Positions 1 to 15,712 of a stretch of 15,712 nucleotides of DNA are shown in pieces. The notes beneath the pieces are model-generated. The model saw only the letters and a program-made list of their open reading frames with translations. It made no database searches and was not told where the DNA came from. Location: contig JANPLU010000001.1 of NCBI GenBank assembly GCA_031422435.1, positions 1-15,712 on the forward strand, read 5' to 3'. A program made the position numbers and the translations under genes. The stretch comes from Acaryochloridaceae cyanobacterium VAR_48_metabat_390 (GTDB taxonomy: Bacteria > Cyanobacteriota > Cyanobacteriia > Thermosynechococcales > Thermosynechococcaceae). Each line of letters starts with the position of its first letter. Position 1 is the stretch's first letter.

Positions 1-380
1 AAATTCAGAGAAGGATCAATCCCAGTAGCCTGAGCCGTGAGGGCAGAAGGACCGACAACACTCGTCGCCGAACTTGCCAGAACACTGCTAGAGGCTGACA
101 AATTTAACGCGCTTTGGCTAGAAGCGTTAAGCGGGGTACTGGCTCCAGCGCTGGGTAAGGCTGAACCACCGCCAACGGGTGCAGGTGCACACTCAGACGA
201 GGCGCTCGATGGAAAGGACTGCATTTCAGGCACAATGGGCTTTAAGAGTGAGCCTGAATCTACAGACCCGCCTTTGAGAGAAGCACCATAAGCCAACGGT
301 GTCTGAGCGACCTGAAAAGCACATACCATAATGCCTAAGGCAAAAGGTGAGAATTTCTGAATAGCGTTGTGTTTTTTCAT
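1..380 (-). CDS. Secreted Ser/Ala-rich hypothetical protein, 5' part only (runs off the left edge)
   Basis: Hand translation from ATG at 380: MKKHNAIQKFSPFALGIMVCAFQVAQTPLAYGASLKGGSVDSGSLLKPIVPEMQSFPSSASSECAPAPVGGGSALPSAGASTPLNASSQSALNLSASSSVLASSATSVVGPSALTAQATGIDPSLN..., open to base 1. Sec-type signal peptide (basic N-terminus, hydrophobic core, AYG/A). AAAGG lies 5 nt upstream. Co-oriented, 61 bp downstream of the 442..1137 gene. Confidence 0.8.
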   Translation of the reverse strand, partial: MKKHNAIQKFSPFALGIMVCAFQVAQTPLAYGASLKGGSVDSGSLLKPIVPEMQSFPSSASSECAPAPVGGGSALPSAGASTPLNASSQSALNLSASSSVLASSATSVVGPSALTAQATGIDPSLN

Positions 381-441
381 GCTTGCCTTTACTAAATAAT
401 CCTCCACCGTGTTTAACTTCTAGGCCTTTAGCAGCGCTGAG

Positions 442-1137
442 TTACCACAATCCCCGAATAGGCACAGGTGCAACTGGCATACCGCCCCCCTGAGGCATTG
501 GGGTAGGCGCAGGCACCATTGGGATGGTACTGACTGGTGCGGGGGTTTCGACACAGCAAATTTTGGTCGCCCAAGTCCCTGCATAGGTCGTAACCTTTAG
601 CTCCTTGCTCGGAACAAGACCTAAGCGGGCAATCGTTGCAGTATCAACAGCCGTGGTAAAAGTTTCGCCGCTAGAAGTCAGTAGCGTAACCTGATCTCCG
701 TTAATAGAAGAAATGGTTCCCTGAACTTCGCGCTCAACCGTGGCAGGCTCGATACGTGCCACGCTTCCAGAAGCGTCAGTATCAAACCCTACAAGAGAAC
801 CAGGTCGTAGACCACTGGTAGAAGAAGCTAGAGCGCTTGGAATAGTCAACTGCTTGGAGGTTCCGTCTAGTGAACGAACCTCAACCATTCCGTTTGACAT
901 GGAACGAACTAGGCCATAGTTGGCAGGTATTTTAGGCTTAGCGGAGGTTGAGTCAGAAGATGTAGAACCAGCGGGCGTAATGGAAGAGTCTGGTTGACTC
1001 TGAGCCAGTATAAATTGTGGGGTTGAGCGAGAAAACTTTGACTGAATCTCCTGAGCACTGATAGATTGCGCAGATCCCGCTAACGTAGCTGCGACAACAA
1101 GAGAAGGGAAGCTCACAATGGTCAAAAATCTTTTCAT
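442..1137 (-). CDS. Secreted hypothetical protein with two tandem small beta-rich repeats and a Pro-rich tail ending PIRGLW
   Basis: The ORF track gives 442..1194; ATG at 1137 (MKRFLTIVSFPSLVVAATLAGSAQSISA/Q) gives a clean signal peptide and is preferred. Ser/Thr linker, two ~60-aa repeats, Pro-rich C-terminus. Confidence 0.8.
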   Translation of the reverse strand: MKRFLTIVSFPSLVVAATLAGSAQSISAQEIQSKFSRSTPQFILAQSQPDSSITPAGSTSSDSTSAKPKIPANYGLVRSMSNGMVEVRSLDGTSKQLTIPSALASSTSGLRPGSLVGFDTDASGSVARIEPATVEREVQGTISSINGDQVTLLTSSGETFTTAVDTATIARLGLVPSKELKVTTYAGTWATKICCVETPAPVSTIPMVPAPTPMPQGGGMPVAPVPIRGLW

Positions 1138-1738
1138 CGGATTACTCAAAATGCAATTAGTGTATGTGTCAAATTTTTCATCCCCCGCCGTCACACCATA
1201 TCTTAACCAGGCTTTCCCTGATTGTCTCTAGTTTCTAAGTTTAATAAGAAAATAGTCAAACTTAACAAACTGATAAGACCTAGGGAGGCGTGCTGACGGT
1301 TGACAATAAAATTACCTATAAAGGAAAGAGATGTTTCACTAGACAACGCGTTCTATAAAATCAAGCTGATCTTGCGCTCTGTCTTAAGACTCTGCTCTTA
1401 TGGACTAGGCGAGTCACAGACCACAGCGCTTCAATTATGTTTTGCCAGACTTCAGCAGTGCTGGCCACTTGCTTGACTCATCGATTCGTTTTTTAGCGAT
1501 CATTCTCATAACGTGACTTCAACACTAATATAGTACATCGCTATGTCAATTGCTTTTAGGTTCCAAAGGTTTCCTTAAGAGTAGCTTTTAGAGCGGTGTT
1601 ATGGACAAGTCTTAAAGTCTAGGTCTATGTTCAGAGTACGAAATAGGGAGCTGTTTTTCCCTTGCTCCATAAGGTATGAACCAAAATTAATTTCTCTTAA
1701 AGTCTTTACTGTACTGCCAGTGTTCTAGAAAGGTCATT

Positions 1739-4018
1739 ATGCATCCTGAACAAGAATCGGTCGACTTAGAGTTAGCAAAAAGCTATGAAGCTGCGGAATA
1801 TCTGGGGATAAAAAGCTGGAATGCTAATGATATGCCCCAAAAGCAGGGTCTGACCCTCAATCCGATTAAGCGGCTAGTCCAACGCAATTGGCTACTGATT
1901 GCCATTCCTACGCTTTTGGCAGGGGGTATTACAAGTGCATTGGTGCTGCTAAGCCCTCAAAGCTACTCTGGAATGTTTCAGGTGTTAGTAGAACCAATGA
2001 GTACAGAAGGAAAGCTGGTACAGCCTGCTGTCCTCTCACCCGATGCTAGTACGGCGGCAGCAGAGCTTGACTATTTAACATTGCTCAGGGTTCTGACTAG
2101 CCCAAGTGTCTTGTCAGGGATTCTTCAGAAAATTAAGGTGAAGTATCCTAAGGTGGATTATGCTGACTTAACTGAAAGGTTAGTTGTTGAGCGTATTGAA
2201 AAAAATCCGGCTGAAAAAACAAAAATCCTCAGCGTGACCTATGAGAGCGCAGATACTCAAAAAATTCTGTTTATATTGAATGAGTTGGCTGCGGGCTACC
2301 TGAAGTTTGGCCTAGAGGATCGCAAGAGCCAAATTGGCGGAGGGGTTGCATTTATTGAGCAGCAGTTGCCAGCATTGAAACAAAGGGTTGAAGCGCTAGA
2401 AGCCCAGATGCAGGCCTTACAGCAGCAGAATAGTATTAGCGATCTGGATAGTGAAGGCTCGGCGTTAGCCCAGCAGTCTCGTCAGCTTCAAACGCAGCAG
2501 CTTGAGGCTCAGCGAGATTTGGCTGCCCAAAAAAGTCTTTATGGCAATCTCCAGCAGCAGTTGGGAGGCTTGACACCAAAGGATGTGATTAATGCATCTT
2601 CTCTAAGTGAGAATCCTCGTTACCAGGCGCTGCTGTCTCAACTGAAGCAGCTTGAGGCTCAAATTGCGCTTCAGTCTGCTCAATTCCAGCCTGAGTTTCC
2701 GGGACTGCAGACGCTGCAAGAGCAGCGTAAAGGTTTACTAACGCTGCTGCAGCAAGAGTCGCAAAAGCTGGTGGGCAGCAATTCTGTCCCGCAGTTTCAG
2801 GCTTCAATCCAAAAGACCATGAGTCAGCAGTTGGTCGATGCGCTCAATCAAACACAGGTTTTGGAGGTTCGTAATCAGGCTTTGATTCAAGCAAGTGCGG
2901 CGATTGAGCAAAAAACAAAGCAATTTCCTGAAATTAAAAGACGTGCTAACGACCTACAGGCTCAGCTTGAAATTGCCCAAAATACCCTGAAGCAGCTTCA
3001 GCTTAAGCGCGAAAGCTTGCGGGTTGAAGCGGCTCAAAAAGAGGTGCCTTGGCGCTTGCTCTCTAAGCCAGACTTGCTTAGAGATTCTCAGGGGCAGCCT
3101 ATTTCGTCTTCGCGCAAGGGATTGCAAAAGGTTTTGCTGGGCATTTTAGGGGGCTTTTTACTGGGGCTGGGTCTTGCAATTCTTCGAGAAAAGCGCCGAG
3201 ATATTTTCTATTCTTTGGAGGATTTACAGGAAGATGTAAAATCTCCTGTGGTTGGCGTCTTTCCTGTAGAGGTCAAATCAACTTCGGTTTTGCCTAGCAG
3301 CCAGTTGGCAAACGAACCCTGGACAGATCATCCCTCTCCGTTACTAAAGGCGGCAGAGTCGCTTTACACAAACCTGAGGTTTTTGCCCCTCGAAACGGGA
3401 CTTAAATCGCTGGTGATTGCATCTGCTAGTCCCCGAGATGGCAAAACGACAGTCATCACCTATTTGGCGAAGGCTGCTGCCAGTATGGGGCAGCGGGTGT
3501 TAGTGGTAGATGCCAATATGGTGACCCCACAGATTCATTCTTGGCTAGATGTGCCAAATTTTGAGGGGCTTAATGAGGTGTTGACCAAAAGCATTGACCC
3601 CAATCAGCTCATCCAGCGATCGCCGCAGCAGACTAATCTCTTTGTGCTAACTTCGGGACAGGTTTCAGCCGCCTCTCGTAAGCTTGTTGCTTCTCAGCAA
3701 ATGCAGCACTTAATGGCGCAGCTTCAAACGATGTTTGATTTGGTGTTGTACGACACGCTGCCGCTCCAGAGCTACGCAGATGCCAATTTTCTTTCGCGCA
3801 ATGCCGATGGAATGCTGATGGTCGTGAGCGTCAAGAAAACGCGGCGATCACTGGTTTTAAGGCTTTTGAAAAAGATCCAAGGCGTTCAGATCCCACTATT
3901 GGGTATTGTGGCGAATCAGGTTAAGTTAATGCCTGAGCGTGAGGTCAGCAATAGAGATTCTCTAGATCATTTTGAAGATGAATTTGAGATGTTTCGCATT
4001 GCGCCTTCACAAGAGTGA
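1739..4018 (+). CDS. wzc: GumC/Wzc-family polysaccharide co-polymerase / BY-kinase-like chain-length determinant
   Basis: N-terminal TM segment (WLLIAIPTLLAGGITSALVLL), long Gln-rich coiled-coil region, second TM (VLLGILGGFLLGLGLAIL), C-terminal P-loop domain with Walker A SASPRDGKTT, A' VLVVDAN, Walker B DLVLYDTLP and closing LLGIVAN. The symbol is family-level only. Confidence 0.92.
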   Translation: MHPEQESVDLELAKSYEAAEYLGIKSWNANDMPQKQGLTLNPIKRLVQRNWLLIAIPTLLAGGITSALVLLSPQSYSGMFQVLVEPMSTEGKLVQPAVLSPDASTAAAELDYLTLLRVLTSPSVLSGILQKIKVKYPKVDYADLTERLVVERIEKNPAEKTKILSVTYESADTQKILFILNELAAGYLKFGLEDRKSQIGGGVAFIEQQLPALKQRVEALEAQMQALQQQNSISDLDSEGSALAQQSRQLQTQQLEAQRDLAAQKSLYGNLQQQLGGLTPKDVINASSLSENPRYQALLSQLKQLEAQIALQSAQFQPEFPGLQTLQEQRKGLLTLLQQESQKLVGSNSVPQFQASIQKTMSQQLVDALNQTQVLEVRNQALIQASAAIEQKTKQFPEIKRRANDLQAQLEIAQNTLKQLQLKRESLRVEAAQKEVPWRLLSKPDLLRDSQGQPISSSRKGLQKVLLGILGGFLLGLGLAILREKRRDIFYSLEDLQEDVKSPVVGVFPVEVKSTSVLPSSQLANEPWTDHPSPLLKAAESLYTNLRFLPLETGLKSLVIASASPRDGKTTVITYLAKAAASMGQRVLVVDANMVTPQIHSWLDVPNFEGLNEVLTKSIDPNQLIQRSPQQTNLFVLTSGQVSAASRKLVASQQMQHLMAQLQTMFDLVLYDTLPLQSYADANFLSRNADGMLMVVSVKKTRRSLVLRLLKKIQGVQIPLLGIVANQVKLMPEREVSNRDSLDHFEDEFEMFRIAPSQE

Positions 4019-4078
4019 GCAAAATGGGAATACTAGAGGCTAACCTACGCTAGATGTTGAGTTTTATGTGCTGTTTTT

Positions 4079-5305
4079 ATGCACCTTAGTGCCGCCGCTC
4101 TCGTCCTGGGGCTGAGTTGGATCCCAATGATAGGCTTGGGAGGGCTGGGGTTAATCTTTTTAATTGAGGTTTGGTCGGCTCAACCTCGTTTAGAGAGTGT
4201 CCAGGGGGCAACAGTCTTCACCGCTTCACCACGCACTACGATTTTGGTTCCTGCCCACAACGAAGAGGCAGACATTGGGGTCACGGTTCAGTCTCTTTTA
4301 GGAGATTTGCAGCCTTGCGATCGCCTGATTGTGATTGCAGATAACTGTAGCGATCGCACGGCTGAAGCCGCCCGACGGGCAGGTGCATTTGTGTTAGAGC
4401 GCACCGATCTTGTGCAGAAGGGTAAGGGGTACGCCCTGGACTATGGACTCAAGTTTTTGGCAAAAGATCCGCCAGAGATGGTGGTGTTTATGGATGCAGA
4501 CTGCACTGTAAAACCAGGAAGTATTGGAATTTTGGTACAAACGGCCTGGGATCTTCAGTGTCCAGTTCAAAGCACCTACTTAATGGAGCAACCCGCAGAA
4601 GCGACGCTTCGCGATCAGATTTCGGCGTTTGCCATCACCCTTAAAAACCTGGTGCGTCCCCTTGGCATGAAAGCATTGGGATGGCCTTGCCTATTAACGG
4701 GTTCGGGCATGGCTTTACCCTGGAGCTTACTGGTGCCAATTTCTTTGGCAGGCAATCGAAATGCAGACGATATGCAGCTTACGGTGGATCTGTCGCTTCA
4801 GGATGTATCGCCTGTGTATGAGCCGCGATCGCAGGTGATGGGTCGGCTGATGCAAGCAGAGGACGCCTATAGCCAGCGCACCCGATGGGAACACGGTCAT
4901 CTCAGAATGATTTTGACCCAGGTGCCTCGACTGCTGAAAGCCATGGTGGTTCAGCGACGCTTTGATTTACTCATTTTGGCCTGCGATATGGCCATTCCGC
5001 CACTCTCTCTATTTATATTGCTGTGGATAGGAACTGCGGTTTTAAATTTAGGGGCGCTTAGTCTTGGCGTGGGGAATCCCTGGAGCTTCATGTTTAGCCT
5101 TTTGATAGGGTTGCCCATTATTTTGGGCGTTTGGACGGCCTGGCATCGATTTGGGCGCACTCTTCTGCCGAGCCAAAACTGGAAGGAAATTCCTCGCTAT
5201 CTACTCTGGAAAGCACCCATCTATCTAAAATTTATGACCCGTCCACAGACCCGCTGGCTCAAAACCGAACGGGATGGAGATAGAAGGGCTGATCGGTCTG
5301 ATTAA
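4079..5305 (+). CDS. Glycosyltransferase family 2, membrane-bound (cellulose synthase/PgaC-like superfamily)
   Basis: Motifs ILVPAHNEE, VIADNCSDRT, GKGYALD, DxD (FMDADC), LTGSGM and QxxRW (QRTRW); N- and C-terminal TM helices; directly downstream of the wzc-like gene. Confidence 0.92.
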   Translation: MHLSAAALVLGLSWIPMIGLGGLGLIFLIEVWSAQPRLESVQGATVFTASPRTTILVPAHNEEADIGVTVQSLLGDLQPCDRLIVIADNCSDRTAEAARRAGAFVLERTDLVQKGKGYALDYGLKFLAKDPPEMVVFMDADCTVKPGSIGILVQTAWDLQCPVQSTYLMEQPAEATLRDQISAFAITLKNLVRPLGMKALGWPCLLTGSGMALPWSLLVPISLAGNRNADDMQLTVDLSLQDVSPVYEPRSQVMGRLMQAEDAYSQRTRWEHGHLRMILTQVPRLLKAMVVQRRFDLLILACDMAIPPLSLFILLWIGTAVLNLGALSLGVGNPWSFMFSLLIGLPIILGVWTAWHRFGRTLLPSQNWKEIPRYLLWKAPIYLKFMTRPQTRWLKTERDGDRRADRSD

Positions 5306-5408
5306 CTGTGCTGTTTAACCCATGCCATCATAGGGAAACGGTTTGAAGCAGAAGGACTATCCTCAACGCTGCCAACGCCTAAACCCACTGAATGGATAAG
5401 TGATCGGA

Positions 5409-6947
5409 ATGGATAAAATGCAGGGATTTGCTTGGAAAACACTCCAAAATGGGTCAGATATCCGAGGCGTTGCACTAGAGGGGGTTGTAGATGAGGCCGT
5501 CAATCTAACGCCTGAAGTGGTCAGTATTTTAGGCAAAGCATTTGTGCGGTGGCTTGAGCAAAAGCTAGAGACAGCCGCTGCTGCTCTAACCATAGCCCTA
5601 GGGCGAGATAGTCGTCTATCTGGGGAACTGCTGATACAGGCTGCTATTGATGGCATTTCATCTTTAGGCGTTACTGTCTATGACTTTGACATTGCTTCTA
5701 CCCCCGCAATGTTTATGAGTACGGTGACGGCTGGGTTTAACTGCTGTGGAGCCATTATGTTGACTGCCAGTCATTTACCCTTTAATCGCAATGGACTCAA
5801 GTTTTTTACAGCGCAGGGTGGCCTTGGAAAGCAAGATATTACAGACATCTTAAAGCTGGCGCAGCAAAATGACTTTGGCAGTGCCGCAAAAAGGGGTGAA
5901 GTGACAAAGCGCGACTTTATTTCTATCTATGCCAATCATCTTGTGCAGACTATTCGGCAGGGGGTTAATCATCCCCATTGCTACGAGCAGCCCCTGAAAG
6001 GATTTAAAATTATTGTAGACGCTGGGAATGGGGCTGGAGGTTTTTTTGCTAGCAAAGTGCTTGAGCCACTGGGTGCCGACACTAGAGGGAGTCAATTTCT
6101 AGAGCCGGATGGCACATTCCCGAACCATATCCCGAACCCTGAAGATAAAGTCGCCATGGTAGCCATCTCTCAGGCGGTGATTAACCATAAGGCGGATCTT
6201 GGCATCATTTTTGATACCGATGTTGATCGTGGCGCTGCGGTTGATCGCCTAGGTCAACCGCTTAACCGCAATCATCTGATTGCGCTGCTGTCAGCGATTG
6301 TCCTGCGGGAGCATCCTGGAAGCACGATTGTGACTGATTCTGCCACCTCTGATGGCTTAACTCAGTTTATTGAGGAAGATTTGCAGGGCATTCACCATCG
6401 TTTTAAGCGTGGCTACAAGAACGTCATTGACGAAGCGATTCGCCTCAATGAGATTGGACAGAAATGCTATCTGGCGATCGAAACTTCCGGCCATGGAGCG
6501 GTGAAGGAAAACTACTTTCTCGATGACGGAGCCTATTTAGTCAGCAAGCTTTTGATTGAACTCGCTCGCTTAAGTCTGGCCGGAAAGTCGCTGTCAGATC
6601 TGATTGCTACGCTAAAGGTGCCACAGGAAAGTGAAGAATTTCGGATTAGGCTGCTGGAAAATGACTTTAAATCCTATGGAAAAAACGTTATTGATCAGCT
6701 TCAGGCCTTTACCCAATCTCAACCAAGCTGGGAAGTTGTTCCCAATAACTATGAGGGGTTAAGGGTTTCTTGCACTGCATCGAACCAGGTGGGCTGGTTT
6801 TTACTGCGCTTATCGCTCCATGACCCCGTGATGCCGATTAATATCGAGTCAGATGTCCAAGGTGGTGTGGCACAAATTAAGGCGATGCTAGCGCAATTTT
6901 TACGACAATTCGAGAGCTTAGATGTGTCAGCGCTTTCCTCTGACTAA
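5409..6947 (+). CDS. Phosphomannomutase/phosphoglucomutase (alpha-D-phosphohexomutase)
   Basis: LQNGSDIRG N-terminus, catalytic phosphoserine loop TASHLP, metal loop FDTDVDR, sugar-binding ETSGH. Start uncertain: GTG 5400, ATG 5409 or ATG 5418. Confidence 0.95.
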   Translation: MDKMQGFAWKTLQNGSDIRGVALEGVVDEAVNLTPEVVSILGKAFVRWLEQKLETAAAALTIALGRDSRLSGELLIQAAIDGISSLGVTVYDFDIASTPAMFMSTVTAGFNCCGAIMLTASHLPFNRNGLKFFTAQGGLGKQDITDILKLAQQNDFGSAAKRGEVTKRDFISIYANHLVQTIRQGVNHPHCYEQPLKGFKIIVDAGNGAGGFFASKVLEPLGADTRGSQFLEPDGTFPNHIPNPEDKVAMVAISQAVINHKADLGIIFDTDVDRGAAVDRLGQPLNRNHLIALLSAIVLREHPGSTIVTDSATSDGLTQFIEEDLQGIHHRFKRGYKNVIDEAIRLNEIGQKCYLAIETSGHGAVKENYFLDDGAYLVSKLLIELARLSLAGKSLSDLIATLKVPQESEEFRIRLLENDFKSYGKNVIDQLQAFTQSQPSWEVVPNNYEGLRVSCTASNQVGWFLLRLSLHDPVMPINIESDVQGGVAQIKAMLAQFLRQFESLDVSALSSD

Positions 6948-6976
6948 AATATGAAAATCAAACAGCATCTAGGTTG

Positions 6977-7045
6977 TGTAAGGGCGGACTTTGCAGATGA
7001 ATCATAGAATTTTCCACTGCGAGATCGGCTAAACTCGCCCTTACA
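6977..7045. repeat. REP-like/MITE-like imperfect inverted repeat between convergent genes
   Basis: TGTAAGGGCG (6977-6986) pairs perfectly with CGCCCTTACA (7036-7045); the stem extends imperfectly inward (GACTTTGCAGAT / ATCGGCTAAACT). Resembles, from memory, GTAG-type cyanobacterial REP elements (GTAGGGGCGGGTTT...AAACCCGCCCCTAC). Confidence 0.7.
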
Positions 7046-7054
7046 TCTTCAGTA

Positions 7055-7474
7055 TCATTCGCGTGTAAGTTGAATGGGGCCGTTGAAGTCGAGGGTTACA
7101 GCATCGCTGGTAAGAGACACCGTAACCACACTTTTAAGCGTAGGTGGAGCTGTAGGTTGTCCCCCAAGAAAGGTAAAGGTCAGGGTACTGTTGCCATTAT
7201 CTTTGAAGGGAGATTGAGTGGCTGGTCCATACATTGAGGTCTCTGCCCGATAGTTATTGAGTCCGCCATTTGCGCGTTCTGCAGCTTGCCGAGCTAAATT
7301 CATGGCGCGTGTTTGCGCCCCGTCTGGGTAGACGGGCGATGTTTTGGCAGGCTCCCCTAAAAAGCCATCTATAATGCCGCGAATTTTAGAAGGAATTTCT
7401 TGCGAATTTGCAGTAGACACGCCCTGAAGTAGGGTTGCGCTGATCAAGCTAAGGACAATCAGTATTTTATTCAT
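7055..7474 (-). CDS. Small secreted conserved cyanobacterial hypothetical protein
   Basis: Signal peptide MNKILIVLSLISATLLQGVSTANS/Q; GGGAGAG upstream on the minus strand; core RAMNLARQAAERANGGLNNYRAE...DNGNSTLTFTFLGG looks like a conserved cyanobacterial domain of unknown function. Confidence 0.8.
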   Translation of the reverse strand: MNKILIVLSLISATLLQGVSTANSQEIPSKIRGIIDGFLGEPAKTSPVYPDGAQTRAMNLARQAAERANGGLNNYRAETSMYGPATQSPFKDNGNSTLTFTFLGGQPTAPPTLKSVVTVSLTSDAVTLDFNGPIQLTRE

Positions 7475-7664
7475 GGTGCTATTACTCTCCCGTTATCTCA
7501 AGTGCTACAAGCCTTTCCATGCCTAAATTTCTCGCAATAGCCCCATTATTTCAGTAATCTTCGTCATCCATCAAAGGTGAGTTTGATCACAGGTGTCTGT
7601 CGGTTGCGTAGCGCTTCGTGAGGTTATCTGAACAGCTCAACCCATGAGGTTCTAAACCACCTTT

Positions 7665-7670
7665 TATAAT
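7665..7670 (+). promoter_or_regulatory. Candidate -10 element for the 7704 gene
   Basis: Perfect TATAAT 33 nt upstream of ATG 7704; no matching -35, which is common in cyanobacteria. Confidence 0.35.
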
Positions 7671-7703
7671 GGAAAAGAGGCTGGTTAATTCTTTCGCAAC
7701 ATT

Positions 7704-8996
7704 ATGTTCTTAAACCCTAAAGTTATTGCGGCAGTCGAGCAGCTTAATTATCGCGTGACGGTGGGCGATGTAGCGATTAAATCTGGGCTAGAGCTACAGG
7801 TGGCTCAGCAGGCGCTCATGACTTTAGCGTCTGAAGCTGGCGGACATCTTCAGGTGACAGAAACGGGAGAGGTTGCCTACCTATTCTCTAAAAATCTTCG
7901 GTCTGTGCTTCAGGCTAAATTTTTGAAATTACGCCTATTGGCTGGGTGGCAAAAAATTTGGAAGGTGCTGTTTTATCTCATTCGCATTTCCTTCGGTATT
8001 CTGCTCATTGCCTCTATTTGCATTATTGCGATCGCCATCATAGCCATCATTATTGCTACTACCTTAAGCAACAAAGATTCTGAGGGCAGCGACTCAGACG
8101 ATGACGTTGGGTTTGGCGGGTTTCCCATTGGCTGGATCTTTACGGACTGGCACTACTTTTTTCTGCCCGATCCCTATGCTGGTTCTGCTAATATTTCCCC
8201 TGCCAAGCAGGGATCAATGAACTTTCTAGAAGCGGTGTTTTCGTTTCTGTTTGGGGATGGAAACCCCAACTCTCATTTGGAAGAGCGACGCTGGCAAGAG
8301 GTTGGCAAAGTTTTGAGACAGCATGGCGGGGCTGTTGCGGCAGAGCAGGTGATTCCCTTTCTTGAGCCGCCTAGCGCAGGGCAGTCCGTTGATGATGCAA
8401 TGCTAGCGGTGCTGCTGCGCTTTAATGGACAGCCTGAAGTTAGCCCTGATGGCGAAATTGTTTATTACTTCCCCGATCTACAAACCTCTGTTGAAGCGAA
8501 TCGCAGTGCCCCTGCTGCACCTTTTTTGAGAGAATCCCTCTGGAAATTTAGCCATGCATCCTTCTCTCAAGTTTTAGGGGCGATTGGGTTGGGAAGCGCA
8601 AATCTGATTGGTGCGGTTATCCTGGGCAAGCTTCTCGGCGAGATCGGCTCTACAACTGGGTTCTTAAGCTTTGTTCAGGCAATATATGGGGGGTTGCTCG
8701 CCTACGGCATCGGCTTTTTAGTGATTCCGCTAGGTCGCTATTTTTGGATTCAGTGGCAAAATCAACGCATTGCGGCTCGAAACCAAGCCCGCGCACAATG
8801 GGCAGAACAGCTGCTTTACGAACCCTCTCAGACGCTGACGCAAAAGCTAACCTTTGCCCGTCAGTTTGCGCGCTCAACCTTGGTAGACGATCTTGACTTG
8901 GTGTACACCACCGAAACAGATCTGCTGGAGCAAGAGTCTGAAAACCAGGCCAAAATTAATGCAGATTGGGAAAAGCGCTTAGGTTCCTCTGCCTAA
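7704..8996 (+). CDS. Conserved cyanobacterial/plastid membrane protein of unknown function (At5g03900-like)
   Basis: N-terminal AVEQLNYRVTVGDVA...LASEAGGHLQV..GEVAYLF block, TM region IRISFGILLIASI, acidic loop, MNFLEAVFSFLFGDGNPN motif and two C-terminal TM helices. Family assigned from memory. Confidence 0.75.
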   Translation: MFLNPKVIAAVEQLNYRVTVGDVAIKSGLELQVAQQALMTLASEAGGHLQVTETGEVAYLFSKNLRSVLQAKFLKLRLLAGWQKIWKVLFYLIRISFGILLIASICIIAIAIIAIIIATTLSNKDSEGSDSDDDVGFGGFPIGWIFTDWHYFFLPDPYAGSANISPAKQGSMNFLEAVFSFLFGDGNPNSHLEERRWQEVGKVLRQHGGAVAAEQVIPFLEPPSAGQSVDDAMLAVLLRFNGQPEVSPDGEIVYYFPDLQTSVEANRSAPAAPFLRESLWKFSHASFSQVLGAIGLGSANLIGAVILGKLLGEIGSTTGFLSFVQAIYGGLLAYGIGFLVIPLGRYFWIQWQNQRIAARNQARAQWAEQLLYEPSQTLTQKLTFARQFARSTLVDDLDLVYTTETDLLEQESENQAKINADWEKRLGSSA

Positions 8997-9047
8997 GAGA
9001 CTCAATGACTCGGGTAAGCCTTAGCTATGCTTGTGCTGAATGATTCT

Positions 9048-9554
9048 TTACCCTTTGACCTCGATGGTTCCTGCCATGCCTGCCTCAGCATGGCCTGGAA
9101 TGGTGCAGCGTAGGCTGTAGATCCCTGCCCGTAGCGGAATAAAAACCCAATCGGCTGTCGACCCAGGCCGTAGCTCTAGCTCATGAATCGCCCCTTTGAC
9201 TTCTACATTGCCAGCATCCACTTTTTGAGACCAAATTGCGTCAGCAAAATCTTTGGCGGTAAAGTAGTGCTTCTGAGAGCTTGGGTTTTGCAGCACTAGC
9301 TTATAGCGACTCCCTGCCTCAAACACAAGTCGATTCGGGATAAAGCTGAGTTCTCCTGCTTCGCTACCTAAGCTTACTGACTTGACAATAGGTGGCTGCT
9401 TAGACAGAGGCACGGATGCCGCGAAGGCAGGCTGAGCCTGGAGACCAACGCTTAAAACAAACGCGAGGGCAAAAACTCCAGCTACACAAAAACGATGCCA
9501 GTGATGACAGATCTCTAAAATGGAAGACGTGAGTTGAGTGGGGAGCTTAGGCAT
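9048..9554 (-). CDS. Exported cupredoxin (plastocyanin/azurin-like type-1 copper protein)
   Basis: Signal peptide ending PAFA/A; upstream His (SQKHYF) and C-terminal ligand loop C-x4-H-x4-M (CTIPGHAEAGM) followed by GTIEV. Confidence 0.9.
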   Translation of the reverse strand: MPKLPTQLTSSILEICHHWHRFCVAGVFALAFVLSVGLQAQPAFAASVPLSKQPPIVKSVSLGSEAGELSFIPNRLVFEAGSRYKLVLQNPSSQKHYFTAKDFADAIWSQKVDAGNVEVKGAIHELELRPGSTADWVFIPLRAGIYSLRCTIPGHAEAGMAGTIEVKG

Positions 9555-9598
9555 AAAGGGTGCCCTACAACACGACCATTAAGTTCTTGAGAACCCCT

Positions 9599-10357
9599 AT
9601 GATACGCACTTTCCTCCTATTTTTGGGCGTTATTACATTCGTTTACGCGGTGCTGTGTGCTGCTCTATTTAGATTTCAGCGTTCATTTATCTACTTTCCG
9701 CAACCGCGATCGCTGGGGGACAGCACGAACCTAATCACACTGCCTGTAGAGGGTGCTACCGTAAACGTAACCATTCGTCCCTACAGTGGCTCAAAGGCGC
9801 TCCTCTACTTTGGCGGCAACTCAGAAGATGTCTCCCGAAGGCTACCTACTTTTTCAACTGCGTTTCCTGGCTATGCCCTTTACCTACAGCATTATCGAGG
9901 TTATGGGGGCAGCTCCGGTAAGCCTTCAGAGGCCGCACTCTTTGCTGATGCGATCGCACTGTTCGACAAGATTTATGCAGAGTACCCAAGCATCACGGTT
10001 GTGGGTCGTAGTTTAGGCAGCGGCGTTGCGGCTTACTTAGCGAGTCAGCGACCTATCGCTCGTCTTGTGCTTGTAACGCCCTATAGCAGTATTCAAGAAC
10101 TGGCTGCTCAGCGTTTTCCCTACTTTCCGGTGCGGTGGCTGCTGGTGGATAAGTTTGAGTCTTGGAAGTACGTCAAGCGGATTGACGCGCCAGCGCTCAT
10201 CATCGCCGCCGAACACGATGAAGTTATACCGCGTGCAAGCACTGCATCACTTTTTAACCGCTTTCGTGCCGGAACTGCATTTCTTAAAATTATTTCTGGT
10301 ACAAGCCACAACACGATCTCCGACAGCCCTGAGTACATTTCGCTCCTTAAAGGATAA
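9599..10357 (+). CDS. Alpha/beta hydrolase with N-terminal membrane anchor (ABHD13/BEM46-like)
   Basis: ATG 9599 preferred over GTG 9560. TM anchor, QRSFIYFP, YFGGN, YRGYGGSSGKPSE, nucleophile elbow GRSLG, Asp in EHDEVIP, His in SHNTI. Confidence 0.9.
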   Translation: MIRTFLLFLGVITFVYAVLCAALFRFQRSFIYFPQPRSLGDSTNLITLPVEGATVNVTIRPYSGSKALLYFGGNSEDVSRRLPTFSTAFPGYALYLQHYRGYGGSSGKPSEAALFADAIALFDKIYAEYPSITVVGRSLGSGVAAYLASQRPIARLVLVTPYSSIQELAAQRFPYFPVRWLLVDKFESWKYVKRIDAPALIIAAEHDEVIPRASTASLFNRFRAGTAFLKIISGTSHNTISDSPEYISLLKG

Positions 10358-10386
10358 TGATGAATAGGCGTAGGGGATGAACGGAA

Positions 10387-10827
10387 GTGAATCGAAATAC
10401 TGGCGACTATCAGAACCCTAATCGTCAACGCGATCACCAGGCCAATGAGCGCACCTTTCTCGCTTGGCTGCGCACGGCGATCGCCCTAATTGGCTTTGGG
10501 TTTGCGATCGCGCGGTTTGGGCTATTCACGCGCCAGCTTCAGGCGACCCTGACGACTCAACCGCTCCCAGAGCAGCCCGGACTAACCTCAGAAAGCCTGG
10601 GAATTGGACTAGTGTTGTTGGGGGTATTGTCCATTGCGATCGCAGCTTGGCGACACAATCAGATCTTTCGGCAAATTGAGCGGCAAACCTATCAGCCCAA
10701 TCCGGTTTTGGTATGGTTGATGACGGCGGCAGTCATGATTCTTGGAACCCTCAGTCTCCCCCTCATTATTTGGCGAGTAGAGAACTCAGCGCCGTCATCA
10801 CCCCCTCAACTTAAACGAAGCCCTTAA
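10387..10827 (+). CDS. YidH/DUF202 family inner membrane protein
   Basis: Signature RDHQANERTFLAWLRT followed by three TM helices; GTG start. Confidence 0.9.
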   Translation: MNRNTGDYQNPNRQRDHQANERTFLAWLRTAIALIGFGFAIARFGLFTRQLQATLTTQPLPEQPGLTSESLGIGLVLLGVLSIAIAAWRHNQIFRQIERQTYQPNPVLVWLMTAAVMILGTLSLPLIIWRVENSAPSSPPQLKRSP

Positions 10828-10878
10828 AGAATTGACCACCATCGTCCCATGATTGACCTATAAGCCTTTGGAGTTTGT

Positions 10879-11556
10879 ATGGAACCGATTCGGATTTTTT
10901 ACTTTTCAGATATTCTCTGCATTTGGGCGTACATTGCACAGATTCGTCTAGATGAGCTGCAATCGACCTTTCAAGACCAGATCGCAATTCAATATCACTT
11001 TGTACCTGTGTTTGGCAATGCGCAGGAAAAGCTTAAGCATGGATGGCGCGATCGCGGGGGCTTACCTGGCTACAGTCAGCACGTAAAGGACGTAACCCAA
11101 AAATTCAGCCACATCACGCTTCATCCCGAGATTTGGATGCATGTTGTTCCGGCATCCTCTACTGCCTGTCATTTGTTTCTGCACGCCATTCAGCTTTTAG
11201 AACAAAAGGGTATCTTTGAGTCTTCCGAGCGGATGTTTGAAAAAGCAGTTTGGGCATTTCGAGAAGCCTTCTTTACAAAACTGGCAAATGTGGGCGATCG
11301 CAAAGTGCAGTTTGAAATTGCGGAAGAATTGGGTTTGCCCGTGACCGCCATTCAGGCACAAATCGACAGCGGTGAAGCCTACGCTCAGCTCTCGAAAGAT
11401 TTTGAATTGGTTAAAGAGCATACCGTAACGGTTAGCCCTACGCTCATTTTTAATGAAGGACGGCAGCGGCTCCATGGCAATGTGGGGTATCGGGTGATAG
11501 AAGCTAACATTCGTGAACTGCTTCACAACCCATCTGGCGAACAGTCGTGGTGCTAA
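10879..11556 (+). CDS. DsbA-family thioredoxin-fold protein (FrnE/HCCA isomerase-like), cytoplasmic
   Basis: N-terminal YFSDILCIWAY active-site region, cis-Pro loop VSPTLIFN, no signal peptide; GGAG RBS at 10870-10873. Confidence 0.85.
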   Translation: MEPIRIFYFSDILCIWAYIAQIRLDELQSTFQDQIAIQYHFVPVFGNAQEKLKHGWRDRGGLPGYSQHVKDVTQKFSHITLHPEIWMHVVPASSTACHLFLHAIQLLEQKGIFESSERMFEKAVWAFREAFFTKLANVGDRKVQFEIAEELGLPVTAIQAQIDSGEAYAQLSKDFELVKEHTVTVSPTLIFNEGRQRLHGNVGYRVIEANIRELLHNPSGEQSWC

Positions 11557-11754
11557 CTCAGGCGGTACCACCGCAAAGGTTTGACGGCAAGGCAAGCGAT
11601 TATTAGGATAAGACTTATGTCCAGAAAGACGGGGTTAGCTAATACCGCATTTAAAAATCTCAAATCTATCGACAACACCCGCTCTTACAAGATCTGGATG
11701 TTATTGACTTCACAATCTTAAACTTTCTCAAGACCCATCCCTTTTAGGTAGACG

Positions 11755-13338
11755 ATGACTGTTTTTCTTACGGCTGCGCTGTATAAATTTGTGGAGCTAC
11801 CCGATTTTGAGGCGCTTCAATCACCTTTGTTAGCCTGCTGTCAAAAAAACGCCATCAAAGGAACCATTCTGCTGGCAGCAGAAGGGATAAATGGCACCAT
11901 CGCAGGCGCTCCGGAGCAGGTTCATCAATTGCTGGCGTTTCTGCGCCAAGATCCGCGATTGGCAGATTTGGTTCACAAAGAATCCTACGGAGAGCAGGCA
12001 CCCTTCTACCGGATAAAGGTGCGGCTGAAGCAGGAAATTGTGAAGATGGGGGTTCCTGGCATCAATCCAACCCAAATGGCGGGGCAGTATGTCAAACCCG
12101 AAGACTGGAACGCGCTCATTGCCGACCCCAGCGTGGTGGTGATTGATGTGCGTAATGACTATGAGATCGGCGTAGGCACCTTTAAGGGGGCAATTAATCC
12201 TCAAACTAAGTGCTTTTCTGAATTGCCAGACTGGGTGAGACAAGAAGCCCTTCTCGAAAATAAACCCAAGGTGGCGATGTTTTGTACAGGGGGCATTCGC
12301 TGCGAGAAATCCACCGCCTTTTTACGAAGCCAAGGATTTGAGGAGGTCTACCATCTAGAGGGCGGCATCTTAAAGTATTTAGAAACGGTGCCCGAGACCG
12401 AAAGCCTATGGGAAGGGGAGTGTTTTGTCTTCGACGAGCGCGTGACGGTTCGTCATGGGCTAAAGCCTGGACACTATGAACTGTGCCGCGCCTGCCGCCA
12501 GCCCATGAGCGAAGCGGATAAGGCATCTGAACTGTATGTGCTGGGCATGAGCTGTCCCCACTGCTACGGGCAAAAAACCGAGGCGCAGCAGAAGGCGTTG
12601 ATGGAGCGTCAGAGACAAATTGAGTTGGCAAAGGCGCGCAACCAAGCTCATATGGGAGCGGTTTACAAATCTAAGCAAGAGACGCAGGCCAAGAACGCGC
12701 TGCCAATTTTGTATTCTTTTCGGCGCTGCCCTTTTGCAATGCGATCGCGGTTGGCACTAGCCGTCAGTGGGCAGGTCTGTGAACTGCGAGAGGTTGTGCT
12801 GCGCGACAAGCCCCAGGCATTGCTGGATGCTTCTCCCAAGGGGACAGTTCCGGTATTGATTGATGGCGAAGGGAAGGTGTTAGAGCAAAGTCTGGATATT
12901 ATGCTTTGGGCACTAGAGCGTAACGACCCCCAAGGCTGGCTAACCCCAGAGCAAGGCACGGTAGAGGATATGCGGCGGCTGATTGCCCAGTTTGACGAAG
13001 GGTTTAAGTATCACCTTGACCGCTACAAGTATCCAGAACGTTACGCAGATGTTGACGCTCAAGTTCACCGCGCTGAAGGTGCGCAGTATTTAGAGCGGCT
13101 TAACACTCAGCTCAGTGAAACACCATACCTATTTGGGCAGCGTGCAGCACTGGCAGATATGGCGATCGCCCCTTTTGTGCGTCAGTTTGCGATCGCCGAT
13201 TTAGATTGGTTTAATGCTCAGCCTTGGCCTCATCTACAGACATGGTTGTCAATCTGGCTAAATTCAGATCTCTACACTCGCATTATGCAGAAATATCCCC
13301 AGTGGGTTCCTGGTCAAGATAAGGTTATTTTCGACTAG
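11755..13338 (+). CDS. trhO: Fusion: tRNA uridine(34) hydroxylase TrhO (YceA/UPF0176, rhodanese-like) plus C-terminal glutathione S-transferase (Omega-like, Cys-type)
   Basis: About aa 1-302: [78 protein letters not shown] (TrhO). From about nt 12700: [61 protein letters not shown] (GST N- and C-domains). Single uninterrupted frame. Confidence 0.9.
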
Positions 13339-13358
13339 ATTTTCAGACTTCCACAATT

Positions 13359-13541
13359 TTATAGGCTGAATACAGGTGGCTGGGGCATCGGGTTGGGTTC
13401 TGGCATAGGAGGCTCTGGAAAAGGCGGCTCTGGCATCGGCGCAGGTTCTGGCGTGGGTGGCTCTGGCATGGGGAATCCTGGCTGAGGGGTAGGTTCTGGC
13501 GGCGTAAAAATTGCTTTTCGATTGATAGCAGTAGTATTCAT
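13359..13541 (-). CDS. 60-aa proline-rich microprotein with six Pro-Glu-Pro repeats
   Basis: 24 of 60 residues are Pro. The unit GG(T/C)TCTGG on the + strand recurs at 13396, 13411, 13426, 13444, 13459 and 13492. All spacings are multiples of 3 and the variable base is the synonymous GAA/GAG position, which supports coding. Confidence 0.65.
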   Translation of the reverse strand: MNTTAINRKAIFTPPEPTPQPGFPMPEPPTPEPAPMPEPPFPEPPMPEPNPMPQPPVFSL

Positions 13542-13669
13542 AAAAAAGCCCAGCTTAGTACTGCCTCTAAAGTATCCATGACTGCCCTGCCTTTGTCTCT
13601 GTCATCGGGGAGGTTTTAGGCGCAATGACACCTCAAAGCTTTATCCCTTTAGAATAGCCACTAGACCGT

Positions 13670-13699
13670 TTTACATTACTGGCCTAACCCTGCTACGCT
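13670..13699 (+). promoter_or_regulatory. Candidate sigma70-type promoter of mfd
   Basis: TTTACA (13670-13675), 18 nt spacer, TACGCT (13694-13699) preceded by an extended -10 TG (13691-13692); 26 nt upstream of ATG 13726. Confidence 0.4.
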
Positions 13700-13725
13700 C
13701 CCAGGGCTAGAGAACTGCAAAGGCT

Positions 13726-15712
13726 ATGACATTTTCCGCACTCGTTCGCTCCCTAAGCCGATCGCGCCTCACAGAAGAACTCCTCACTAAACTGACCCAA
13801 ACGCAAGACCTGCACCTGAGCGGATTGGCAAGATTGCCCAAGGGACTTGTAGCCTCGGCGATCGCCCAAGTCCGCAATCAACACCTGTGCATCATTACCG
13901 CCACTCTAGAAGAAGCAGGTCGCTGGGCGGCACAGCTAGAAGCAATGGGCTGGGCAACCGTGCAGTTTTACCCCACCGCAGAATCTTCACCCTACGAAGC
14001 CTTTGACCTCGAAGCCGAAATGACCTGGGGACAGCTCCAGGTTTTGGCAGAACTGCTCAACCCCAGCCAGCCGATCGCATTGGTTGCCACCGAGCGATCG
14101 CTCCAGCCCCATCTGCCCCCCGTTGAAGCATTCCGCCCCTACTGCCTGACCCTCCATAAAGGGATGGAATACAACCTAGAAACCCTCAGCCGTCAGCTTG
14201 CCACCCAGGGGTACGAACGGGTTTCCCTTGTTGAAACTGAAGGCCAATGGAGTCGGCGCGGGGACATTATCGACGTGTTTCCGGTTTCGGCAGAGCTGCC
14301 CGTGCGGTTGGAATGGTTTGGGGATGAGCTGGATAAGCTACGGGAATTCGATCCGGCATCCCAGCGATCGCTTGAAAGCATCACCCAGCTCACCCTTACC
14401 CCCACCAGTTTTCAGCCCATCACCATTGCCCACCTTACCGACGCCCAGCGGCAGCAAATCCAGACGCATCTTTCTCCCGAAGCCCAAGACCAGCTTGAAA
14501 ACGGCACCCTAGAAGGCGCGCGTCGTTTTTTAGGCATTGCCTTTGGACAGCCTGCCTCTTTGCTTGATTACCTACCTGAAAATACCCTGATTGCCCTTGA
14601 CGAACCGGAGCAGTGCCAAGCCCACTGCGATCGCTGGGTCGAACACGCCGAAGAACATTGGCAGAGCCTTGACCAAACCGAACTAGTGCTGCCTAAAATT
14701 CATCAGTCTTTCGCGGAAGGGCTAGACCAGATGGGCACCTTTGAACGGCTGCGGCTCAATGAGCTAGCGGTAGAAAACCAGGGTTTAAATCTTGCCAGTC
14801 GGCCTGTACCTGCCCTGCCTCATCAGTTTGGAAAATTAGCAGAGACGCTGAGGACAGAACGCGATCGCAAGTTCCAGATTTGGCTCGTTTCTGCCCAACC
14901 CTCACGGTCAGTCTCACTGCTGCAAGAGCATGACTGTCCGGCACAGTTTGTGCCTAACCCTAGGGATTTTCCGGCGATCGACAAGCTTCATGAGTACAAA
15001 ACGCCCGTGGCGCTGAAGTATTCGGGACTGGCAGAGCTAGAAGGCTTTATTCTGCCCACGTTCCGCGTGGTGCTGGTAACGGATCGGGAGTTTTTTGGGC
15101 AGCATACCCTTACTACGCCCAGCTATATTCGCAAGCGTCGTCGCGCGGCTTCAAAGCAGGTTGACCCCAATAAGCTTCAGCCAGGAGATTATGTGGTACA
15201 TCGCAACCACGGAGTGGGGCGCTTCATCAAGTTAGAAAGTCTCACCATTAATCAAGAAACCCGCGAGTATCTGGTGATTCAGTACGGCGACGGCTTACTG
15301 CGGGTGGCGGCAGATCAGTTGGGGGCGCTGTCTCGATTACGGGCAACCAGCAGCCAGCCCCCCGAACTCAACAAAATGTCTGGCAAAGCCTGGGAAAAAA
15401 CCAAGAGCAAAGTCCGCAAGGCGATCAAAAAGCTGGCGGTGGATTTGCTTCAGCTTTACGCCCAGCGATCGCAGCAGCAGGGCTTCACCTACCCGACGGA
15501 TCTCCCCTGGCAGGCCGAAATGGAAGATTCCTTCCCCTACCAGGCCACCCCCGACCAGCTCAAGGCGACGCAAGATGTGAAGCGAGATATGGAAGGCGAT
15601 CGCCCAATGGATCGACTGGTCTGTGGAGATGTGGGCTTTGGCAAAACCGAGGTTGCCATCCGCGCCATCTTTAAGGCGGTGACAGCAGGCAAACAGGTCG
15701 CCCTTTTAGCCC
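13726..15712 (+). CDS. mfd: Transcription-repair coupling factor Mfd, 5' part (runs off the right edge)
   Basis: Hand translation from ATG 13726: [20 protein letters not shown]...[15 protein letters not shown]...[29 protein letters not shown] (UvrB-homology module), [17 protein letters not shown] (CarD/RID domain), [14 protein letters not shown] and [20 protein letters not shown] (helicase motif I). Confidence 0.97.

Follow-up and report, generated by a model that had tools for sequence, protein, structure and literature searches.

Why should an enzyme that hydroxylates transfer RNA be made as one polypeptide with a glutathione S-transferase (GST)? The question is raised by an open reading frame (ORF) in a 15,712-nt stretch of DNA from Acaryochloridaceae cyanobacterium VAR_48_metabat_390, here called the window (assembly GCA_031422435.1, contig JANPLU010000001.1, positions 1 to 15,712), in which the wobble-uridine (U34) hydroxylase TrhO runs on, in frame, into a GST. 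In our best explanation, to which we give an even chance of being right as a whole, the gene encodes a genuine bifunctional protein, a TrhO tethered by a flexible linker to a GST that acts as its glutathione-dependent redox partner, either as reductant or as thiol-repair partner. The same partnership had been proposed, on Rosetta-stone grounds, in a sequence-only reading of the window, which described a complete TrhO with its CTGGIRC and C-terminal Cys motifs, a linker of ~13 residues at 12661-12699, a complete Cys-type (Omega-like) GST with an RRCPF active site, and no stop codon across the fusion.

The fusion protein and its two halves

With the exception of the Omega label, this description of the architecture is borne out. 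The parts of the ORF are listed below in window coordinates (aa, amino acids); conservation refers to an alignment of 106 of 120 database fusions and to one of 31 stand-alone members of the GST subfamily.

11755..13338, + strand: whole TrhO-GST fusion ORF, 527 aa plus stop, ATG start, a single ORF without internal stop
11770..12039, + strand: UPF0176_N (acylphosphatase-like) domain, aa 6-95 (Pfam, E = 2.5e-28)
12100..12381, + strand: rhodanese domain, aa 116-209 (Pfam, E = 1.3e-10)
12283..12303, + strand: catalytic loop CXGGXR, C177-T178-G179-G180-I181-R182-C183, aligned with E. coli C200-C206; invariant in the 106 fusions
12484..12564, + strand: C-terminal Cys pairs C244/C247 and C267/C270; invariant in the 106 fusions
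12652..12699, + strand: flexible linker, aa 300-315
12700..12924, + strand: GST N-terminal thioredoxin-fold domain, aa 316-390 (Pfam GST_N_3, E = 6.2e-17, match aa 319-390)
12727..12732, + strand: predicted catalytic C325-P326 (C325, 12727-12729) of the GST active site SFRRCPF; invariant columns
within the GST N-terminal domain, + strand: cis-Pro loop V365-P366, and S379 at the start of helix 3; invariant columns, placed by the AlphaFold2 model
12961..13335, + strand: GST C-terminal helical domain, aa 403-527 (Pfam GST_C_2 at aa 438-498; model; Foldseek)
within the GST C-terminal domain, + strand: motifs LDRYKY (K425, Y426) and FVRQF (R476, Q477), from the subfamily alignment

The TrhO portion, the N-terminal 302 residues, matches the NCBIfam TrhO equivalog NF001133 at 325.6 bits over aa 7-234 (cut-off, 170) and is 32% identical to E. 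coli TrhO (K-12 record) over 277 aa; a Rhodanese_C match at aa 220-273 is weak, its 20.3 bits falling under the Pfam cut-off of 26.9. Mutational work on the E. coli enzyme reports C200, T201, G203 and R205 to be essential, together with K112 and R114 of the tRNA-binding sheet (PMC6599085). The counterparts of the first four, C177, T178, G180 and R182, are all kept and are invariant among the aligned fusions, and the basic-sheet pair corresponds to R90 and K92, with the charge preserved and both positions at least 90% conserved. E. coli TrhO is reported to bind two zinc ions, zinc not being a redox metal (bioRxiv 10.1101/2025.11.10.687516), and the two C-terminal Cys pairs likely form a zinc site, with the four Cys as presumed ligands. 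E. coli TrhO (YceA) has the same UPF0176_N domain, rhodanese domain and Cys-rich C terminus but stands alone at 350 aa, whereas the window protein carries a 212-aa GST at its C terminus. Judged by sequence, the TrhO half has the features of an O2-dependent tRNA U34 hydroxylase, and both halves look active.

The linker of the sequence-only reading corresponds exactly to aa 303-315, and an in-frame ATG (M300) stands immediately ahead of the linker region. In a full-length AlphaFold2 model, with a mean predicted local distance difference test score (pLDDT) of 90.1, two well-folded domains are joined by residues 300-313 at pLDDT < 50, predicted to be disordered; the predicted TM-score (pTM) of 0.54 means that the packing of the two domains is without confident prediction.

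Residues 316-527 match GST_N_3, GST_N_2, GST_N, GST_C_2 and GST_C in Pfam. Modeled by AlphaFold2 from the 31-member alignment, they adopt a canonical GST fold (pLDDT 97.4, pTM 0.92) for which no fewer than 500 GST chains come up in Foldseek (E <= 0.001). TM-scores go up to 0.79; many solved GSTs match at 0.72-0.79 with identities of only 16-26%, and the Cys-type GSTs match at 0.71-0.79. In this model, C325-P326 lies just before helix 1 (326-338), V365-P366 precede strand 3 (367-369) and S379 opens helix 3 (379-389), and all five residues are invariant in the 31 subfamily members and the 106 fusions. As modeled, these are the three classical elements of a glutathione site, placed as in GSTs and glutaredoxins, and the half as a whole is best explained as a catalytically competent, glutathione-binding GST of the Cys type.

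It is the class assignment that has to be narrowed. By convention, members of one GST class share about 40% identity. The window GST is at most 28% identical to solved GSTs; the solved structures nearest to it in sequence are SspA, DHAR, tau and Omega GSTs, with E about 1e-10 (5.6e-10 to 1e-7), and Omega, at E = 5.7e-9, is not the top match and shows 19-22% identity in Foldseek. The Cys-type designation therefore stands, and membership of the Omega class proper does not. With Omega (GSTO1/2), Lambda, DHAR and GrxB proteins it shares the two-domain GST fold and a Cys-Pro where helix 1 begins, and there is a resemblance between the subfamily motif SFRRCPYAMRAR and the Omega active-site stretch; it differs from the solved Cys-type GSTs in its low identity and in motifs of its own, LDRYKY and FPFVRQF. 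These motifs are strongly conserved in the subfamily (the second as FPFVRQFA), and we file the window GST, on sequence grounds, as a subfamily of its own that is "Omega-like" in its active-site motif only. Most members stand alone: in a comparison of the GST domain with 1.84 billion representatives, 522 clusters reach E <= 1e-30, and among the best 150 of these 148 are no longer than 343 aa and one has the length of a TrhO fusion. No NCBIfam GST model scores above its cut-off for the GST half, no characterised member of the subfamily was found, and an ESM Atlas look-up of the domain returned generic "glutathione S-transferase" clusters alone, in keeping with the plain "glutathione S-transferase" label that members bear in databases. 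GrxB of E. coli is 23% identical to the window GST over 83 aa. In E. coli K-12 (NC_000913.3), grxB and trhO are separated by seven genes and about 5.5 kb (8808-9860 and 15408-16055 of the locus), a proximity that is probably due to chance.

Occurrence and history of the trhO-gst pair

Proteins of this architecture are widespread. In a collection of 5.8 billion proteins, each of the best 120 matches has a rhodanese as well as a GST domain in Pfam; query coverage is 97% or more for 119 of them, whose identities are 54-94%, and 89% for the remaining entry, of 488 aa. They are filed under the names "UPF0176" or "rhodanese-related sulfurtransferase", which conceal the GST half. The fusion is thus not confined to this genome, which corrects the sequence-only reading, whose author knew of no description of it but left its novelty open. 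A search of full text, with subscription journals and supplements outside its coverage, found no paper that ties TrhO, YceA or 5-hydroxyuridine (ho5U), its product, to glutathione or to a GST. What the locus presents is a known enzyme with a recurrent, hitherto undescribed accessory domain and gene partner, the proteins themselves being already in databases.

The conservation of the fusion in relatives is also the stronger evidence for its junction, which was checked in Logan contigs rather than in raw reads. Those of run X1, which may come from the source sample, span 12300-13100 with 0 differences, and a 299-nt contig of run X2, from another sample of the same study, spans 12529-12827 with 0 differences and 0 gaps; indels were not reported, and in both runs the junction is unchanged, without stop or frameshift. 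The gene also fits its genome. The HIP1 palindrome GCGATCGC occurs at 22 sites in the window (0.18 expected by chance), including three copies in the GST half of the ORF (12741, 13162 and 13189 are named among the sites) and none in the TrhO half, and the GC content of the fusion gene is similar to that of its surroundings, so that the gene belongs in a cyanobacterial genome and is no chimeric contamination. In this 3.7-Mb, 99.99%-complete genome the fusion is both the sole TrhO and the sole member of the GST subfamily.

Beyond the fusions, the two genes recur side by side. We inspected 80 GST loci, one genome per species, found by a search with the GST-subfamily alignment and taken as those most like the window GST, a choice that overstates linkage: 2 are fused (Acidovorax, Comamonas), trhO is the immediate upstream neighbour on the same strand in 45, no trhO occurs within about 4 kb in 31, and 2 are untestable. 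In 44 of the 45 adjacent pairs the genes are no more than 433 nt apart, and overlaps of 1 or 4 nt are frequent. Linked loci are found in Cyanobacteria (Microcoleus, Kamptonema, Elainellales), Burkholderiales (Acidovorax, Polaromonas, Rhodoferax, Pusillimonas), Alphaproteobacteria (Sphingomonadaceae, Rhodospirillales, Kordiimonas, Parvibaculaceae) and Myxococcota. When TrhO is the starting point, with 80 metagenome loci chosen by likeness to it, the two genes are fused in 6, adjacent in 10, separated by about 1.1 kb in 2 and divergent in 1. Both the fusion and the gene pair are thus found in other genomes, and the fusion is a minority form of a broader trhO-then-gst gene pair. Microcoleaceae-type cyanobacterial loci have the pair adjacent in 10 of 10 cases, always as two separate ORFs; the idea that these were fusions with long linkers, prompted by open-frame lengths of 606-662 aa, was rejected, as one to several stop codons split the two ORFs, and such lengths are no proof of a single ORF.

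The preference for GST is also seen among long TrhO proteins. GST is the partner in 112 of the 120 proteins listed from 4,501 matches of at least 530 aa; of the other eight, two carry PF00485 (phosphoribulokinase/uridine-kinase family), three carry PF14903 and three have no recognised partner. The PF00485 proteins are 540-559 aa long and the PF14903 proteins 845-873 aa, and one 877-aa protein has TrhO-type domains only (these variants being proteins P0333, P0341, P0321, P0322, P0324 and P0320). In the opposite direction, the 62 ORFs that flank the 31 unlinked GST genes are heterogeneous in Pfam, with no second recurrent partner. Translation-related neighbours of unlinked GSTs (an RF-1 domain, SmpB, Sua5) are isolated and anecdotal.

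The history of the pair was traced in a maximum-likelihood tree of concatenated TrhO and GST parts from 98 linked pairs (IQ-TREE quick search, LG+G4, with supports from the Shimodaira-Hasegawa-like approximate likelihood ratio test, SH-aLRT). It requires 6 changes between the fused and adjacent states, as compared with an average of 32 for shuffled labels, and branches whose support is at least 95 impose no fewer than 4 of the 6. The fused clades are the cyanobacterial clade of the window, the protein pair P0035 and P0047, and a Comamonas clade; a fused 19-row Comamonadaceae clade has adjacent Rhodoferax pairs as sisters, and a fused Acidovorax clade sits next to adjacent Acidovorax pairs. Linkers of other fusions are 13-43 aa long and unrelated in sequence between clades, a variation that fits independent fusion events. 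Linked pairs from Cyanobacteria fall into a single supported group (30 rows, support 96) that is nested in Burkholderiales rows, the Alphaproteobacteria and Myxococcota lying on the far side of the midpoint root. This nesting, together with the patchy cyanobacterial spread, suggests that the trhO-gst pair moved horizontally between phyla as a unit, in a direction that the unrooted tree does not fix.

Co-occurrence was counted in even samples of 301 cyanobacterial, 91 alphaproteobacterial and 91 Burkholderiales genomes, without a statistical test because related genomes are not independent. TrhO is present in 132 of the 301 Cyanobacteria, and all 18 genomes listed with a GST match have it (8 further matches stand outside that list); the two genes are adjacent in 12 of the 18, 2.3 kb apart in one and unlinked in five. 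The window genome holds the only fusion in this sample, and the three other genomes of its family (G125, G140 and G276) have neither a TrhO nor a GST match at E <= 1e-10. Among Alphaproteobacteria, the GST is present in 10 of 31 TrhO-bearing versus 0 of 60 TrhO-lacking genomes, a tally that takes in the unpublished TrhO-only genome G461, and is adjacent to trhO in 7 of the 10, once in reverse order. The corresponding counts in Burkholderiales are 14 of 36 TrhO-bearing genomes and 6 of 55 others. Finally, 24 of the 31 genomes with an unlinked close GST have TrhO elsewhere.

What the GST may do for TrhO

TrhO has been known since 2019, and the way in which its rhodanese fold, devoid of a redox cofactor, uses O2 to hydroxylate uridine has been an open question ever since. 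Recombinant TrhO alone is reported to make ho5U34 in a mix of Tris, NaCl, MgCl2 and 10 mM 2-mercaptoethanol, with the oxygen derived from O2, and 75% conversion took a tenfold excess of enzyme; the authors left the mechanism open (PMC6599085), and a 2023 review terms it unknown (PMC10135228). Mono-oxygenation by O2 needs two electrons, and with neither a flavin nor a redox metal at hand the obvious candidate for the donor is a thiol. Cyanobacteria and proteobacteria have glutathione (GSH) as their chief cellular thiol, and the host genome has genes for its synthesis (gshB-type, 246 bits; GCS2-type ligase, 189 bits). To these points (an in vitro reaction with a thiol as its only reductant and enzyme in excess, in a host that can make glutathione) the redox-partner reading adds the conservation of both active sites, the linkage, the repeated fusion, the standing of GST as the commonest partner, and the co-occurrence.

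From the observed architecture, active-site conservation and recurrent linkage we infer a scheme in four steps, drawn by analogy with Cys-dependent C5-pyrimidine enzymes and with the GST-assisted recycling of 1-Cys peroxiredoxins. Cys177 would attack C6 of U34; the resulting C5 carbanion would react with O2 to give a peroxy intermediate or, alternatively, an enzyme Cys-sulfenate; the GST, through Cys325 and bound GSH, would reduce this intermediate, or else re-reduce or deglutathionylate the TrhO thiol; and ho5U would be released together with reduced enzyme, ready for further turnovers. The nearest precedent is the 1-Cys peroxiredoxin Prdx6, which is reactivated by GSH-loaded GST-pi: there, too, a GST brings GSH to the oxidised catalytic Cys of another enzyme, but families, substrate and organisms differ, and the TrhO sulfenate is hypothetical. 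A precedent of another kind is provided by the TrhO-TrmR fusions reported from Phytophthora and Phaeodactylum, a Rosetta-stone clue in which TrhO is likewise fused to a protein of the same pathway; the partner there is the downstream ho5U O-methyltransferase, whereas the GST of the window has no known place in the pathway (PMC6599085).

In its most specific form, which we put forward tentatively and think possible rather than probable, this reading makes glutathione the physiological two-electron donor of TrhO and the GST a dedicated "TrhO reductase" for the peroxy or sulfenate intermediate, which would turn a near-stoichiometric reaction into a catalytic one; unlinked orthologues would act in trans, and other thiols would serve in E. 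coli. If glutathione is the donor, wobble decoding of NYN codons would be coupled to the glutathione status of the cell. In any case, the recurrent pair and its fusions name a testable candidate reductant, glutathione delivered by a dedicated transferase; the fusion offers a natural single-chain construct for biochemistry; and the linkage to TrhO gives a first pointer to the function of this bacterial GST subfamily, which is large and uncharacterised.

A number of results weigh against a redox partnership. The GST subfamily is not represented in E. coli K-12 (best match, 22 bits), whose TrhO works nonetheless. The linkage count for the 80 GST loci is inflated by the way in which they were chosen, and from the TrhO side 49 of the 68 testable metagenome loci (12 were untestable) have TrhO only, with no GST downstream. 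Most TrhO-bearing cyanobacteria lack the GST; in Burkholderiales, only 2 of the 20 GST-bearing genomes have the genes linked, one fused and one adjacent, and 6 of the 20 have no TrhO at E <= 1e-30; and where a close GST is unlinked, TrhO is missing at E <= 1e-10 from 7 of the 31 genomes, among them a complete Thalassospira chromosome. A tree of the GST alone interleaves linked and unlinked members (18 changes, at least 6 forced), which means that linkage has been gained and lost often and that the unlinked genes are close kin of the linked ones; the GST probably has a TrhO-independent job as well. The full-length model gives no confident domain packing, and the tie between GSH and ho5U is our own inference; a P. 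aeruginosa screen, in the passages considered, mentions gshA/B solely for another modification. A complex prediction with the two halves as separate chains, each with its own alignment, scored 0.00 and, run without controls, is evidence neither way. Taken with the counts above, the trhO-gst link is clade-specific and facultative, and the GST is at most an accessory that other thiol systems can replace. The Rosetta-stone argument of the sequence-only reading is accordingly upheld in part: adjacency in 45 of 78 testable loci, the 2 fused loci and the repetition of fusion speak for it, while the partnership is facultative and the redox mechanism a proposal.

Among the rival explanations, the one that survives best is a redox switch or protective device, in which the GST would reversibly glutathionylate and deglutathionylate the reactive rhodanese residue Cys177 (or C183), guard it against over-oxidation in an oxygenic phototroph and tune wobble hydroxylation to the redox state of glutathione, without being the donor in each cycle. 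We consider it unlikely, though far from negligible. Cys-type GSTs of the Omega, Lambda and glutaredoxin-2 kind typically catalyse just such thiol transfer; the linkage, fusion and co-occurrence apply to it equally; a flexible tether with no fixed interface would suit occasional repair; and a facultative spread is more to be expected of a protective add-on than of a core catalytic subunit. Set against this, the present data fit reduction in every cycle just as well, glutathionylated TrhO is a hypothetical species, and the pair is common in non-phototrophic aerobes and hence not tied to oxygenic photosynthesis.

The frequent overlaps of 1 or 4 nt, by which a single frameshift would fuse the genes, raise the question of whether the two are merely co-expressed, in a shared operon of an aerobic or oxidative-stress programme, the fusions being neutral accidents of overlapping stop and start codons. 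The frequent loss of linkage (the 18 changes in the GST tree) and the heterogeneous neighbours of unlinked GSTs would agree with this. However, the order trhO-then-gst is kept in Cyanobacteria, Alpha- and Betaproteobacteria and Myxococcota, no other recurrent partner was found among the flanks of the unlinked GSTs or in the listed long TrhO proteins, and fused clades have persisted and diversified (120 listed clusters at 54-94% identity) with both active sites invariant. Fusions that recur and last so long, and the presence of GST in 112 of the 120 listed long TrhO proteins, are not easily reconciled with mere co-expression, which we regard as quite improbable.

We give still less credence to a GST-fold module that is not catalytic and serves to bind tRNA or another protein, as the GST-like domains of eukaryotic aminoacyl-tRNA-synthetase complexes and of eEF1B-gamma serve in binding and assembly. 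Many basic residues of the GST half are invariant (R323, R324, R330, R332, R345, K425 and R476 in full-length numbering) and could face an anionic partner such as RNA, and the non-enzymatic SspA is among the nearest sequence matches of solved structure. Yet SspA-type proteins lack the conservation pattern of this subfamily, and a purely structural role is unlikely because the residues of the GSH site (Cys-Pro, cis-Pro loop and helix-3 Ser) are invariant in the 31 stand-alone and 106 fused members. Finally, a role after hydroxylation, in which the GST would act on ho5U-tRNA or a small by-product, for instance to make or remove a further derivative, is suggested by a host genome where CmoA is not over its cut-off (best 25 bits versus 193.3) and a Methyltransf_3 O-methyltransferase is present (167 bits), but we know of no precedent and Cys-type GSTs are poor conjugating enzymes, so that we find it barely credible.

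Surroundings of the fusion gene

The host genome also has Peptidase_U32 matches, a possible TrhP route to ho5U. In the window, a DSBA-like gene of the thioredoxin fold (10879-11556, + strand) precedes the fusion at a distance of 198 nt. The idea that it is a third redox partner was rejected: no homologue is found near trhO in the 80 metagenome loci, and the neighbourhood is therefore not conserved. A scan of 11400-13800 for promoters and terminators gave counts within chance expectation. Converging on the fusion is a 60-aa ORF (13359-13541, - strand), rich in Pro and Glu with PEPP-like repeats (MPEPPTPEPAPMPEPPFPEPPMPEP) and with no NCBIfam match. Farther upstream, a probable exopolysaccharide cluster (1739-6947, + strand) comprises genes for a Wzz/P-loop tyrosine-kinase-like protein (759 aa), a family-2 glycosyltransferase (408 aa) and a phosphoglucomutase/phosphomannomutase (515 aa); downstream of the fusion, an Mfd/TRCF-like gene runs from 13726 onward. 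In a Microcoleaceae-type genome (locus L006), the ORF of 393 aa upstream of trhO-gst (2732-3913, - strand) looks like a sulfate adenylyltransferase, a tentative identification.

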